Source: an uncultured Clostridia bacterium
GTDB lineage: Bacteria; Bacillota; Clostridia; Christensenellales; UBA1242
Reading direction: 5' to 3'
Assembly: GCA_934778215.1 (NCBI GenBank)
Contig: CAKVOE010000001.1
Location: 9,273 to 73,272, forward strand
DNA: 64,000 nt
Part shown: piece after piece, positions 22,322 through 26,319 of the stretch
How the letters are laid out: the number at the start of each line of letters is the position of its first letter
How positions within the stretch are numbered: position 1 is the stretch's first letter
Position numbers and translations under genes: made by a program
The notes under the pieces: generated by a model
The model's input: only the letters and a program-made list of their open reading frames with translations
What the model was told of the DNA's origin: nothing
Database searches by the model: none

Positions 22322-24709
22322 ATGATTAAATCTGTAATTAAGAGAAATGGAACAACCGTTGACTACGACATTACCAAAATAGAAAATGCTATTGCCAAAG
22401 CGATGCTTAGTTTGGGATATGGAAACATTCAAGATGTTAAAAAGATGGCAAAAATCACCGAGTTATATTTAACCGAAAAGTTCGCTGACACCATTCCAAC
22501 GGTCGAAAATATTCAAGATATGGTAGAAACCGTTTTGATGAAAAATGGGTACGAAGATGTTGCTAAAGCATATATTATATACAGAAAAGAACACGAAAAA
22601 ATTAGAAACATTAGCACAACTTTGCTAGACTACAAAGAAACGGTAGACAAATACTTAAAACTTGCCGATTGGCGTGTTAAAGAAAATTCTACGGTAACCT
22701 ATTCGGTTGGTGGATTAATTTTGTCTAACTCTGGAGCAATCACGGCAAACTACTGGTTAAGTGATGTTTACGACAACGAAATAGCAGAGGCGCACAAAAA
22801 TGCAGATATTCATATTCATGACCTTAGTATGCTTACTGGCTATTGTGCAGGGTGGTCGTTAAAGCAATTAATTACCGAAGGATTAGGCGGTATTAAGGGA
22901 AAAATTGCATCAACACCAGCATCTCACTTAAGCACACTATGCAACCAAATGGTTAACTTTTTGGGAATTATGCAAAACGAGTGGGCAGGCGCTCAGGCGT
23001 TCTCTTCGTTTGATACCTATTTGGCACCATTTGTAAAAGCGGACAAATTAACATATAAAGAAGTAAAACAATGTATACAAAGTTTTGTATATGGTGTAAA
23101 CACGCCATCAAGATGGGGAACACAAGCACCATTTACAAACATAACCCTAGATTGGGTAGTTCCACAAGATTTGGCAGAACTAAATTGTATTGTGGGTGGC
23201 AAAGAGCAAAACTTTAAATATAAAGATTGTGTAAAAGAAATGGAGATGGTAAACAAAGCCTTTATCGAAATTATGATAGAGGGCGATGCAAATGGCAGAG
23301 GTTTCCAATATCCAATTCCTACATACTCAATCACAAAGACCTTTGACTGGTCAGAAGAAAAGGAAAACAACCGTTTGTTGTTTGAAATGACTACCAAATA
23401 TGGTACTCCATACTTCTCTAACTATATAAACTCAGATATGGAGCCTAGTGATGTAAGAAGTATGTGTTGCAGACTTCGTTTAGACCTAAGAGAGTTACGA
23501 AAAAAATCGGGCGGATATTTTGGTTCGGGCGAAAGCACGGGAAGTGTTGGTGTTGTAACCATAAATATGCCAAGAATTGCTTACCTATCAAATTCTGAAG
23601 AGGAATTTTTTGAAAGACTTGCTAAAATGATGGATATTTCGGCAAGAAGTTTAAAAATTAAGAGAGATACCATCACAAAACTATTAGAAATGGGTTTGTA
23701 TCCATACACTAAGAGATATTTGGGTTCATTTAACAACCACTTCTCTACAATTGGTTTGGTTGGTATGAACGAAGCGTGCTTAAACGCAAAGTGGATTCAA
23801 AAAGACCTAACAGACGAAACAGCACAAGAATTTACCAAAAAAACGCTTAATTTTATGAGAGAAAGACTTTCTGATTATCAAGAAAAGTATGGCGATTTAT
23901 ATAACCTAGAAGCGACTCCAGCCGAATCTACATCATTTAGATTGGCAAAGCATGACAGAAAGCGTTGGCCAGACATTATAACGGCATCTAATGACGAAAA
24001 CAGCCCATATTACACCAACTCATCGCACCTACCAGTAGGGTACACCGATGATGTGTTCAAGGCGCTAAAAATTCAAGATGAATTCCAAACCCTTTATACC
24101 TCAGGAACGGTTTTCCATACCTTTTTGGGTCAAAGACTAGAAGATTGGAAGGTTACCATGAATTTGGTAAAAAAGATTGCCGAAAACTTTAAGTTGCCAT
24201 ATTACACCATTAGCCCAACTTATTCTATTTGCGAAACACACGGATATATTAATGGCGAGCATAACACCTGCCCAGAATGTGGCAAACCAACAGAAATTTA
24301 TAGCCGTATAACTGGTTATTATAGACCAGTTGCAAACTGGAATGATGGCAAAACACAAGAGTTTAAACAACGAAAAACCTACGATTTGGCACACTCTACC
24401 TTATGTGCAACAAAAAAAGATGACTGTTGTCAAAATGAGTGTGATAACAAAACCAATGCAAATTGTGGGGTAACCGAAACAATGTTATTTGGTTCGGCAA
24501 CATGCCCAAATTGCAAAATGGCAAAGATGCTTTTAGATAAGGCAGGGATAACCTATGACTACATAATAGCATCAGAAAATGCCGATCTTGCAAAGGCACT
24601 AAATGTTACCAAAGCGCCTACATTGTTTGCAAAAGTAAATGGCGAAACAATTAAGTTAGAAAATGTTTCAGACATAAAAAAATACATAGAAGAAGGAATG
24701 ATAAAGTAG
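22322..24709 (+). CDS. nrdD: Anaerobic ribonucleoside-triphosphate reductase (class III) with a C-terminal glutaredoxin/NrdH-like CPNC domain
   Basis: The N-terminus is an ATP cone (VIKRNGTTVDYDITKIENAI). A Zn ribbon CETHG..CPECG and the glycyl-radical motif SRITGYYRPV (Gly codon 24314-24316) are present. A Cys-rich linker follows, then LFGSATCPNCKMAKMLLDKAGITYDYI... (24467-24706). Confidence 0.92.
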   Translation: MIKSVIKRNGTTVDYDITKIENAIAKAMLSLGYGNIQDVKKMAKITELYLTEKFADTIPTVENIQDMVETVLMKNGYEDVAKAYIIYRKEHEKIRNISTTLLDYKETVDKYLKLADWRVKENSTVTYSVGGLILSNSGAITANYWLSDVYDNEIAEAHKNADIHIHDLSMLTGYCAGWSLKQLITEGLGGIKGKIASTPASHLSTLCNQMVNFLGIMQNEWAGAQAFSSFDTYLAPFVKADKLTYKEVKQCIQSFVYGVNTPSRWGTQAPFTNITLDWVVPQDLAELNCIVGGKEQNFKYKDCVKEMEMVNKAFIEIMIEGDANGRGFQYPIPTYSITKTFDWSEEKENNRLLFEMTTKYGTPYFSNYINSDMEPSDVRSMCCRLRLDLRELRKKSGGYFGSGESTGSVGVVTINMPRIAYLSNSEEEFFERLAKMMDISARSLKIKRDTITKLLEMGLYPYTKRYLGSFNNHFSTIGLVGMNEACLNAKWIQKDLTDETAQEFTKKTLNFMRERLSDYQEKYGDLYNLEATPAESTSFRLAKHDRKRWPDIITASNDENSPYYTNSSHLPVGYTDDVFKALKIQDEFQTLYTSGTVFHTFLGQRLEDWKVTMNLVKKIAENFKLPYYTISPTYSICETHGYINGEHNTCPECGKPTEIYSRITGYYRPVANWNDGKTQEFKQRKTYDLAHSTLCATKKDDCCQNECDNKTNANCGVTETMLFGSATCPNCKMAKMLLDKAGITYDYIIASENADLAKALNVTKAPTLFAKVNGETIKLENVSDIKKYIEEGMIK

Positions 24710-24713
24710 TATT

Positions 24714-25628
24714 ATGACAGACATAATAGTAGTTGGTGGCGGTATGGCGGGTATGACATCTGCGCTATATGCACTAAGAAATAACCGCTCAGTAAAAGTA
24801 TTTGAAAGAGAGAGTTTTGGCGGACAGATTGCAAAAAGTCCACGGGTAGAAAACTATCCAACCGAAAAAACCATCACAGGAGCCGAACTATCAGACAAAT
24901 TATTTGAGCAAATTACCGAACTTGGTGCGGAGTTTGAGTTAGAGGACGTAACCAAAATAGAAAAATCGGGCAAAATATTTAAAGTTATTACCAACTACCA
25001 TACCTTTGAGTGCAAATCGGTTATTATAGCAAGCGGGGTAAAGCCTCGCTTGCTAAATATTGAAAACGAAAAGCGTTTGCTAGGTAAGGGCGTATATTAT
25101 TGTGCAATATGCGATGGGCCTTTTTATGCAGGCAAAGATGTAACTTTAATAGGCGATGCCAACAGTGCGTTACAATATGCGTTAATGCTTGCAGGTTTTT
25201 GCAAATCGGTGCATATTTGCACGCTTTTTGACAGGTTTTTTGGCGAGCAGATGTTGCAAGACGCCGTAAAAAGAACTCCAAATATTACCATTACTCACAA
25301 TGTAAGTGCAACAAAATTTAACGGAGAAGACAAACTAACCTCCATAACTTTCAAAAACACAAAAACGGGCGAAGTTTATGATGAAAAAACGGAGGCTGTG
25401 TTTGTGGCAATAGGTCAAGTTCCAGATAACAAGGCGTTTGCAAATTTGGTAGATTTAGATTCTGCGGGCTACATAATTTCTGACGAAAATTGCAAAACTA
25501 AAACAGATGGGCTTTTTGTTGTTGGAGATTGCCGAACAAAAGCAATAAGACAGGTAACAACGGCGGTATCTGATGGAGCGGTAGCGGGTACAAGTGCAAG
25601 TTTGTATTTGAGTTCGATTGGAGATTAG
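24714..25628 (+). CDS. trxB: Thioredoxin-disulfide reductase family flavoprotein
   Basis: 304 aa with IIVVGGGMAGMTSA (FAD-binding), the redox-active CAICDG motif and C-terminal GDCR...RQVTTAVSDGAVAG. Confidence 0.85.
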   Translation: MTDIIVVGGGMAGMTSALYALRNNRSVKVFERESFGGQIAKSPRVENYPTEKTITGAELSDKLFEQITELGAEFELEDVTKIEKSGKIFKVITNYHTFECKSVIIASGVKPRLLNIENEKRLLGKGVYYCAICDGPFYAGKDVTLIGDANSALQYALMLAGFCKSVHICTLFDRFFGEQMLQDAVKRTPNITITHNVSATKFNGEDKLTSITFKNTKTGEVYDEKTEAVFVAIGQVPDNKAFANLVDLDSAGYIISDENCKTKTDGLFVVGDCRTKAIRQVTTAVSDGAVAGTSASLYLSSIGD

Positions 25629-25629
25629 T

Positions 25630-26319
25630 ATGAAAATTTTAGGCATAGAAAAGGTATCTTTTGTAGATTACGAAGGCAAAATGTGTGCCACAATTTTTAC
25701 AGGGGGCTGTAATTACAGATGCCCCTTTTGTCATAATGGCGGAATTGTGTTAGACAAATACAAAGAAATTAGCGAAGACGATATTTTGGAATATTTGCGT
25801 TCAAGAAAGGGTCTTTTAGATGCAGTCACAATTTCGGGCGGAGAACCAACCTTGCAACCCGACTTAAAGCAGTTTATTATAAAGGTTAAAAAACTCGGTT
25901 TTTTGGTAAAACTAGACACAAACGGCACCAATCCAGCGGTGTTAATAGATTTGGTAAATGATAATTTATTAGATTATGTCGCAATAGATATAAAAACCAA
26001 CTTTGAAGACTATAATAGGGTGGCTGGCGTTTCTAACGCATTACAAAACAATGTGCAAAGAAGTATTAACTATTTAAAGCAAAGCAATATAAATTACGAG
26101 CTTAGAACTACACTGGTTAAGGAATTTCATACCACAGAAAGCATAACCAAAATGGCAGATGAGTTGGCTGGGCAAAAAAAATTATATTTGCAAAAATTTA
26201 AAGCCAGCCCCGATTGTATAAATTCTGCCGGGTTAAGTGAAGTGCCAAAACAAATTGCAAAAGAGTATGCGGATATTTTAAAAAGAACCATACCAATGGT
26301 AGAACTTAGGGGCTATTAA
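25630..26319 (+). CDS. nrdG: Anaerobic ribonucleotide reductase activating protein (radical SAM)
   Basis: ATG 25630 comes directly after the trxB stop (TAG 25626-25628). It has GGCNYRCPFCHN (CxxxCxxC) and ISGGEPTLQPDL. Confidence 0.88.
   Translation: MKILGIEKVSFVDYEGKMCATIFTGGCNYRCPFCHNGGIVLDKYKEISEDDILEYLRSRKGLLDAVTISGGEPTLQPDLKQFIIKVKKLGFLVKLDTNGTNPAVLIDLVNDNLLDYVAIDIKTNFEDYNRVAGVSNALQNNVQRSINYLKQSNINYELRTTLVKEFHTTESITKMADELAGQKKLYLQKFKASPDCINSAGLSEVPKQIAKEYADILKRTIPMVELRGY

Follow-up and report, generated by a model that had tools for sequence, protein, structure and literature searches.

A class III ribonucleotide reductase with a fused glutaredoxin-like domain, encoded next to a thioredoxin reductase-family flavoprotein with altered NAD(P)H signatures in an uncultured Clostridia bacterium

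Genes, active-site type and control of the nrdD locus

The locus lies in a stretch of 64,000 nucleotides from an uncultured Clostridia bacterium (GTDB lineage UBA1242; contig CAKVOE010000001.1, positions 9,273 to 73,272), which is called the window in the following and is numbered from its first letter. Three co-directional open reading frames (ORFs) occupy positions 22322-26319 of the plus strand. The first is nrdD (22322-24709), which codes for a class III ribonucleotide reductase (RNR) of 795 residues and was identified by means of Pfam, NCBIfam and alignments to the structures 4COI, 4U3E and 8P23. Its parts are, in this order, an ATP-cone, the catalytic barrel, the glycyl-radical domain, a linker and a redoxin domain. 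The second gene (24714-25628) codes for a flavoprotein of 304 residues, which belongs to an nrdD-linked lineage of the thioredoxin reductase (TrxR) family, and is here called trxB-like. The third is nrdG (25630-26319), coding for a radical S-adenosylmethionine (SAM) activase of the NrdG2 type with 229 residues. NrdG matches the NCBIfam model TIGR02495 (NrdG2) with 215 bits (cut-off 131) and contains the cluster motif CNYRCPFC (25708-25731). The junctions are tight: the nrdD stop codon TAG (24707-24709) is separated by 4 nt from the ATG of the trxB-like gene at 24714, and the stop codon of the latter, TAG (25626-25628), is followed after a single base by the ATG of nrdG at 25630, which is preceded by a GGAGA ribosome-binding site. 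This gene order, the abutment of trxB and nrdG, and the motifs quoted in an initial annotation made from the sequence were all confirmed. The position of trxB between nrdD and nrdG, which that annotation had highlighted, is true for this locus; it is a lineage-specific order that was found in 4 of 80 related loci.

All features by which a class III RNR is recognized are present, namely the NRDD barrel, the glycyl-radical motif and the adjoining radical-SAM activase. The Pfam model NRDD (PF13597) matches residues 121-687 with 635 bits, and NF006126 of NCBIfam matches NrdD with 1120 bits compared to a cut-off of 548. The ATP-cone (PF03477, E 5e-23) covers residues 4-92 (22331-22597), and the glycyl-radical motif RITGYYRPV (24305-24331) contains Gly665 (24314-24316). 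The four residues of a zinc-ribbon-like site, CETH...CPEC (C637, H640, C650, C653; 24230-24283), are all invariant; by analogy with known NrdD structures, this site would bind zinc.

Active-site equivalences were deduced from phmmer alignments to NrdD from Thermotoga maritima (4COI, 4U3E) and to the formate-dependent NrdD from Prevotella copri (8P23). Cys175 in GYCAGW (22844-22846), the bottom-face cysteine of strand beta-A, aligns with C125 of T. maritima and is invariant in 35 homologues. The finger loop MCCR (Met381, Cys382, Cys383, Arg384; 23462-23473) aligns with SCCR (residues 328-331) of T. maritima and with MGCR of P. copri, and the extended motif RSMCCRLR is present in all 120 homologues listed. 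Glu530 in YNLEATPAE (23909-23911) aligns with E495 of T. maritima, the proposed proton donor in formate-independent reduction (PMC9669993); the formate-type P. copri enzyme contains a Leu in this position. The same columns were used by Burnim et al. 2022 (PMC9669993) to distinguish formate users, which have a single-Cys MGCR loop, from double-Cys enzymes with a Glu, which were linked to disulfide/thioredoxin chemistry. MCCR plus Glu accounts for 83% of the double-Cys class III RNRs, and the label thioredoxin-only was kept for small Met-less subclades that include the enzymes from Neisseria bacilliformis and T. maritima (PMC9669993). NrdD1 is characterized by a single-Cys MGCR loop and the absence of an active-site Glu, which does not agree with MCCR and Glu530 of the query. 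NrdD3 is characterized by QCCR/A and has neither Met nor Glu, which does not agree with Met381 and Glu530. The NrdD2 residues, that is the beta-A Cys, the second finger-loop Cys and the Glu, are present; the Met-less finger loop SCCR is absent. Judged by these positions, the enzyme is assigned to the Cys-pair-plus-Glu (disulfide) kind within the mixed MCCR group, and neither to NrdD1 nor to NrdD3. The alignment of the core with formate and thioredoxin types, which the initial annotation had proposed for deciding between them, thus gave a divided answer: the Cys pair and the Glu are present, and the formate-type Met is retained as well.

The whole 64-kb window was scanned for NrdR boxes with the pattern ACACWATATATWGTGT, allowing for at most two mismatches. 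The only two matches (chance expectation 0.21) are AATCAATATATTGTGT (22171-22186) and AGACTATATGTTGTGT (22203-22218), which form a tandem on the plus strand (22171-22218). Each box agrees in 14 of 16 positions and their starts are 32 bp apart. Box 2 overlaps a promoter-like TTTACA-17-TAAAAT (22196-22224) that was proposed by a consensus scan alone. The arrangement corresponds to that of the NrdR regulon, where 16-bp boxes are found at the promoter with a spacing of about three helical turns. The gene 5' of the operon, rpsI, is followed by a terminator-like hairpin (21826-21855), and a consensus/hairpin scan found no convincing terminator inside the operon. On these signals, nrdD, the trxB-like gene and nrdG are predicted to be a single NrdR-controlled transcription unit. 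A further hairpin is located on the minus strand at 26607-26635, 3' of nrdG.

The fused redoxin domain and its spread

Residues 689-720 of NrdD (24386-24481) are a linker that contains five Cys (positions 695, 702, 703, 707 and 715) and includes the Cys-rich stretch CATKKDDCCQNECDNKTNANC (24404-24466). It is followed by a glutaredoxin-like thioredoxin-fold domain (residues 721-790; 24482-24691) with a CPNC active site (Cys728, Cys731; 24503-24514) and the cis-Pro motif A765-P766-T767. The Pfam model Glutaredoxin (PF00462) matches residues 721-772 with 33.4 bits, compared to a cut-off of 22.9. An AlphaFold2 model of the domain alone, which was based on the last 75 residues and an alignment of 22 homologous domains, reached a predicted local distance difference test score (pLDDT) of 92.4. 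Its secondary structure, beta-alpha-beta-alpha-beta-beta-alpha, follows the order of glutaredoxins (Grx); CPNC opens helix 1, and Ala-Pro-Thr lies before strand 3. When this model was compared to the PDB by means of Foldseek, exclusively thioredoxin-fold proteins were found, with template-modelling (TM) scores of about 0.7. Pfam, AlphaFold2 and Foldseek thus confirm the CPNC domain of about 80 residues that had been described behind the Cys-rich linker, and the possibility, raised in the same place, that this domain might lack a thioredoxin fold is contradicted by the confident model and its Foldseek matches. The full-length model of NrdD, for which the alignment was shallow (35 sequences with 70-92% identity), is readable for the redoxin domain and the linker. 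In this model, the redoxin domain has pLDDT values of 83-90, and residues 689-715 are disordered with values below 50.

The motifs TCPNC and APT (the cis-Pro) are invariant across the homologues, and TCPNC was found in all 120 that are listed. Among solved structures, the sequences closest to the domain profile are the CPYC units of 1J08, 1A8L and 2AYT, followed by small archaeal thioredoxins and then by NrdH, whose structures match weakly (E 5e-4). The scores of the domain for NCBIfam models of the Grx, NrdH and YruB type are all far below the cut-offs (for example 19.7 compared to 90 for GRX_bact). Classical Grx combine CPYC with glutathione-binding residues, and NrdH combines CVQC with WSGFRP; neither a WSGFRP nor a GG-x-dD motif is visible in the sequence of the redoxin domain. 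Glutaredoxin-like redoxin is a name as precise as the evidence allows.

The linkers of the family have a mean length of about 29 residues. Among 71 distinct ones, 63 contain at least one Cys and 41 a CC or CxC, whereas 8 contain no Cys; Cys residues are enriched across the family, and their positions are not conserved. The NrdD described here is the only one of the 120 listed that has five linker Cys and is the richest. An obligatory function of these residues as a shuttle or as a metal site was rejected, because of the 8 linkers lacking Cys and the variable positions. An intermediate linker thiol shuttle, analogous to the C-terminal tail of class I and class II RNRs, is possible but not obligatory. 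Several fused homologues (P0012, P0013, P0016 and P0027) carry a short C-terminal extension whose last residue is Cys (GGIC, VAKC, GVTC and GKIC), which is absent here.

A search seeded with residues 686-795 yielded 143 clusters (90% identity) of proteins with about 790 residues. In the best 120 of the 143, an ATP-cone, NRDD and a redoxin domain are recorded for nearly all; a few have no record of the redoxin domain or of the ATP-cone. A search seeded with the NrdD core led to the same architecture: all of the 120 best homologues (86-96% core identity) contain the redoxin domain, and no close unfused relative with a separate redoxin gene was found among them. One protein of 950 residues (P0271) combines NrdD with a PF00085 domain, and its length may be explained by an intein or another insertion.

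If each species is represented by one genome, relatives of the CPNC domain occur in at least 577 stretches, and synteny was counted in the best 80 of these. The 80 loci originate from bacteria of gut and rumen: uncultured Clostridia (Oscillospiraceae, Acutalibacteraceae, Christensenellaceae), Bacilli and Erysipelotrichaceae. All but one (79 of 80) contain a single ORF that spans the glycyl-radical motif and CPNC; the 80th is truncated by a contig end. A TrxB homologue lies directly 3' in 77 of the 79 evaluable loci, and its start follows the redoxin domain at a median distance of 24 nt. Besides one locus at a contig end, trxB is missing only from L040 and L036, two loci of related Acutalibacteraceae with unrelated genes downstream. 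In these two (L040, 6300-7937; L036, 1369-2959), the downstream genes code for a double zinc ribbon and a Macro domain, and there is no substitute reductase. Compared to trxB, the placement of nrdG is variable: 35 loci have it upstream, 24 have it downstream in convergent orientation, 4 have it downstream in the same direction (as here), and in 17 it lies outside the locus. The conserved unit is nrdD-grx plus trxB, regardless of the position of nrdG. Such a pattern would be expected of a flavoprotein whose partner is the redoxin and not the activase. The survey that the initial annotation had called for therefore shows that the C-terminal redoxin fusion with an adjacent trxB is widespread.

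Fused NrdD is also encoded by twelve viral contigs of IMG/VR (L081-L089 and L093-L095). In L095 (about 3966-5213), an ORF of 1384 residues ends in the CPNC domain and may hold an intein or an insertion. Three other viral contigs contain a free-standing redoxin of 87 residues with the motif TKTCPNCKMAK (L090, 5001-5207; L091, 1907-2113; L092, 1858-2064), and no NrdD was found beside it in the fetched flanks.

The flavoprotein and the source of the electrons

The flavoprotein matches PF07992 with 145 bits and has kept the flavin adenine dinucleotide (FAD) motifs GGGMAG, IIASGV and GLFVVGDC. The redox-active motif CAICDG (Cys130, Cys133; 25101-25118) is also in place, and CxxCDG occurs in 77 of 77 nrdD-linked homologues. 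Among the features of an NADPH-dependent low-Mr TrxR (NTR), the FAD motifs and the CxxC are thus present, whereas the NAD(P)H motifs are not. GDANSA (25152-25169) is found where the pyrophosphate-binding GGGxxA is expected, and TLFDRFFG (25221-25244) where the 2'-phosphate-binding HRRDxxRA is expected. The full motif regions are GDANSALQ and VHICTLFDRFFG, compared to GGGxxAxE and VxxxHRRDxxRA. In the alignment with the NADPH-dependent enzymes 5UWY, 5MH4 and 7AAW, GDANSA corresponds to GGGDSA and TLFDRFFG to HRRDxLRA. The pyrophosphate-contacting Gly of GGGxxA is replaced by Ala and preceded by Asp; all three Arg of VxxxHRRDxxRA are lost and replaced by Leu, Phe and Phe. For the NCBIfam equivalog model of thioredoxin-disulfide reductase, TIGR01292, the score of 299 bits is below the cut-off of 343.

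These replacements are shared by a lineage. HRRD..R is retained in just 2 of the 77 nrdD-linked homologues, those of the basal loci L048 and L019. The others form two groups, one with GD[AG]NxA and TLFDxFF, which includes the flavoprotein from the window, and one with GGGNSA and QNLDxxTG. The replacement residues are themselves conserved, the exact TLFD being found in about 24 of the 32 group members, which suggests a remodelled site rather than decay. In a maximum-likelihood tree that had three NADPH-dependent TrxRs as its only references, the 74 usable nrdD-linked TrxBs form a clade apart from the references (support 100/100), and the subgroup with GD[AG]NxA and TLFDxFF is a clade with a support of 100/99. 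Among 1.8 billion representative proteins, the four best matches (52-60% identity) all have the variant motifs of this flavoprotein; proteins with the canonical HRR first appear at 48% identity. From these comparisons, the flavoprotein looks like a member of a separate, nrdD-dedicated lineage that gave up its pyridine-nucleotide site.

It is probable, in our view, that the locus constitutes an operon repressed by NrdR, which serves a redoxin-dependent class III RNR with a tethered CPNC domain and a dedicated non-NADPH flavoprotein. According to this model, NrdG would place the glycyl radical on Gly665. In each turnover, Cys175 of strand beta-A and one Cys of MCCR would provide two reducing equivalents and would remain as a disulfide, with Glu530 as the putative proton donor. 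The active-site disulfide would then be re-reduced by the enzyme's own C-terminal CPNC domain, which is carried by a predicted disordered, Cys-enriched linker of about 30 residues. The oxidised CPNC would be recharged via the CAICDG dithiol and the FAD of the flavoprotein, whose gene starts 4 nt behind nrdD. As both NAD(P)H-binding signatures are replaced, NADPH is most likely not the donor of the flavoprotein, and our best guess is a protein carrier of low potential, for example ferredoxin or flavodoxin. All steps of electron transfer, and also which molecule is the donor, are inferred here and not observed. The initial annotation had postulated a chain leading from NADPH via TrxB and the fused redoxin to NrdD, as a tethered version of the N. 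bacilliformis pathway. Its part from TrxB via the redoxin to NrdD has strong comparative support, which comes from synteny, whereas the NADPH step is unsupported, both NAD(P)H motifs being replaced.

Several observations weigh against this model or parts of it. The flavoprotein is more similar to an NADPH-dependent TrxR (5UWY, 208 bits) than to ferredoxin-dependent TrxRs (FFTRs), namely the cyanobacterial FFTR 5J60 (124 bits) or the clostridial FFTRs 6GNA and 6GNC (115-116 bits), and the same order of scores was obtained for a member of the other nrdD-linked group. Ferredoxin is therefore proposed as the donor only by analogy, as a guess. On the same similarity values, an identity with clostridial FFTR was rejected, despite the missing NAD(P)H motifs. 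A motif screen of 3553 ORFs from the 80 loci detected no conserved ferredoxin, flavodoxin or rubredoxin neighbour; a rubredoxin was found once. The basic residue of the thioredoxin-docking motif G[R/K]G is not conserved in the nrdD-linked lineage, which reads GxG. The flavoprotein of the window contains Lys125 in this column (G-K-G, 25083-25091), where homologues have GEG, GNG, GKG or GHG. Such a column hints at a docking surface unlike that of canonical TrxR-thioredoxin pairs. The full-length NrdD model is too poor for docking, with a mean pLDDT of 63.9 and a poor barrel. Met381 is retained; the enzyme is therefore not of the Met-less N. bacilliformis/T. maritima type, and formate use is possible by sequence. 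None of the twelve phage contigs with fused NrdD contains a TrxB gene within 5 kb, and nrdG is nearby in one of them (L094). The domain can therefore work with a reductase encoded elsewhere, which for the phage-borne enzymes is presumably that of the host. Finally, no functional or biochemical study of a Grx:NrdD fusion was found in the literature searched, except for a line in a supplementary table.

The similarity scores bear on the alternative that NADPH (or NADH) does feed TrxB, the fused redoxin and NrdD, with the pyridine nucleotide being bound by the flavoprotein in a non-canonical manner. The closest overall likeness is to NADPH-dependent low-Mr TrxRs, domain layout and length are canonical, and a C-terminal tail as in the cyanobacterial FFTR is missing. 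Moreover, the two basal homologues have kept HRRD..R, and NADH-preferring TrxRs are known, for example T. maritima TR and DvTR3 (PMC5627308). We nevertheless regard this alternative as unlikely. The combination of GGGxxA and HRRDxxR is the published test for an NAD(P)H-dependent TrxR, and its absence places a protein among the non-NTRs (PMC10880999). With the loss of the three Arg, the Ala in place of the pyrophosphate-contacting Gly and the preceding Asp, the flavoprotein falls into this category, and its TIGR01292 score points in the same direction. Furthermore, DvTRi from Desulfovibrio vulgaris, which has similar substitutions, was experimentally not reduced by NADH or NADPH (PMC5627308).

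According to a second alternative, formate is the turnover reductant, with Met381 and Cys175 engaged in thiosulfuranyl chemistry as in the E. coli enzyme. Redoxin and reductase would then serve maintenance, that is, keep a Cys-rich enzyme reduced, rescue adventitious disulfides after exposure to oxygen or oxidants, or contribute to redox regulation. This is compatible with the family-wide conservation of the Met in MCCR and with the phage copies that lack the dedicated reductase. Moreover, MCCR enzymes have what is needed to use either formate or thioredoxin, and the Met-containing state looks ancestral (PMC9669993). However, Glu530 and the second finger-loop Cys are invariant, and keeping a covalently attached redoxin (1:1) and a private reductase in no fewer than 77 species-level genomes would be a heavy cost for occasional repair. 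The operon is under predicted control of NrdR; no oxidative-stress operator turned up, although none was specifically searched for. Formate as the turnover reductant thus appears distinctly unlikely. It is highly improbable that the flavoprotein instead feeds the electron to the [4Fe-4S] cluster of NrdG for glycyl-radical installation, in place of flavodoxin and its reductase: the translational coupling of trxB to nrdG in this locus (1-nt gap) and the notion that low-potential electrons could be carried by a flavoprotein that has no NAD(P)H site would fit, but the flavoprotein gene follows the redoxin domain while nrdG is upstream, convergent or off-locus in 76 of the 80 loci, and the CxxCDG dithiol in 77 of 77 homologues marks disulfide exchange and not one-electron delivery.

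The model of a redoxin-dependent enzyme with a dedicated non-NADPH flavoprotein may be extended to a whole clade, although we put this forward tentatively and do not expect all of it to hold. A large clade of gut Bacillota would possess a hard-wired relay consisting of a non-NAD(P)H descendant of TrxR, a tethered CPNC domain and the active-site disulfide, and MCCR-plus-Glu enzymes would be redoxin-dependent in general. The TrxR descendant would be fed by ferredoxin, flavodoxin or a new donor, and the linker cysteines would possibly act like the C-terminal shuttle of class I and class II RNRs. If this is true, anaerobic synthesis of deoxynucleoside triphosphates is tied directly to the fermentative low-potential electron pool, and there is a further family of pyridine-nucleotide-independent thioredoxin reductases.

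The nrdD-grx/trxB unit is a real, widespread and uncharacterised variant of a known enzyme class. The reductant of class III RNRs is settled for a handful of enzymes, and the MCCR group makes up the majority of the double-Cys sequences. A natural fusion is strong evidence of the "Rosetta stone" type for a redox partner, and fusion and private reductase recur in dozens of species-level genomes (77 of the 79 loci that could be evaluated, with matching stretches numbering at least 577). That the flavoprotein has lost its NAD(P)H site raises the question of the donor for the synthesis of DNA precursors in many uncultured Clostridia and Bacilli of gut and rumen and in phages. In strict anaerobes, NrdD is often the sole RNR, and the answer therefore bears on the coupling of replication to the fermentative redox state. 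As the module is compact and consists of three genes, it is suited for direct reconstitution.

Comparison with known systems

Reviews list three reductants for class III RNRs, which are formate for NrdD1, thioredoxin for NrdD2 and an NrdH-like redoxin for NrdD3. NrdD2, as known from the biochemistry of the N. bacilliformis enzyme and the T. maritima structures 4COI and 4U3E, shares with the enzyme described here the beta-A Cys, the double-Cys finger loop and the Glu that corresponds to E495. A thioredoxin-fold reductant that is recharged by a TrxR-type flavoprotein would be a further common feature, as proposed here on the basis of the sequences. N. bacilliformis NrdD2 is reported to depend on a free-standing thioredoxin and an NADPH-dependent TrxR (Wei et al. 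2014, as cited in PMC9669993, PMC4493059 and PMC9176816). NrdD2 has SCCR without Met and a separate thioredoxin, whereas here MCCR, a fused redoxin and a neighbouring reductase without NAD(P)H motifs are found.

The fusion of a glutaredoxin-type domain to an RNR subunit has a counterpart in the class I Grx::NrdB of Facklamia ignava, whose Grx domain was shown to be a working reductant of the RNR (PMC6187632). There, the domain sits at the N-terminus of the subunit that generates the radical in an aerobic enzyme, and it uses glutathione; here, it is C-terminal on NrdD. Table S1 of Rozman Grinberg et al. 2018 contains one "Glutaredoxin:NrdD", WP_082039398.1 from Lachnospiraceae bacterium TWA4, subclass NrdDd (PMC6187632). 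The architecture was thus recorded as a listing, and the abundance of the fusion, the adjacent reductase and the loss of its motifs were not mentioned (PMC6187632).

NrdD3 from Methanosarcina barkeri is likewise a class III RNR that is reported to use a small glutaredoxin-like redoxin and electrons that do not come from NADPH (PMC9176816, PMC9669993). It differs in its QCCR/A loop with neither Met nor Glu, in its separate redoxin and in its iron-sulfur reductase, compared to the flavoprotein found here. The partner of the M. barkeri redoxin is a ferredoxin:disulfide reductase.

With regard to the flavoprotein, DvTRi (PMC5627308), the clostridial FFTR (6GNA-6GND) and the cyanobacterial FFTR/DTR (5J60, PMC8154056) also kept the TrxR fold, FAD and CxxC and replaced GGGxxA and HRRDxxR. 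Such NAD(P)H-independent TrxRs occur in anaerobes. The replacement residues differ, being TQ/NGK in TRi and TLFDxFF here, and the C-terminal aromatic tail of the cyanobacterial FFTR is absent. The partner of DvTRi and the FFTRs is a general thioredoxin, whereas it would be a domain of NrdD in the case presented here.

Among solved structures, the CPNC domain is matched best by the glutaredoxin-like protein disulfide oxidoreductases from Pyrococcus and Aquifex (1A8L, 1J08, 2AYT, 2YWM), which share the thioredoxin fold with Cxx(Y/N)C. The match is weak, with E values of about 4e-9 for the whole protein and 1e-3 per unit. In contrast to the domain of NrdD, these enzymes are free-standing and have no RNR fused to them; each consists of two units with CPYC. 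Their reductants are flavoproteins of the TrxR type and not glutathione.

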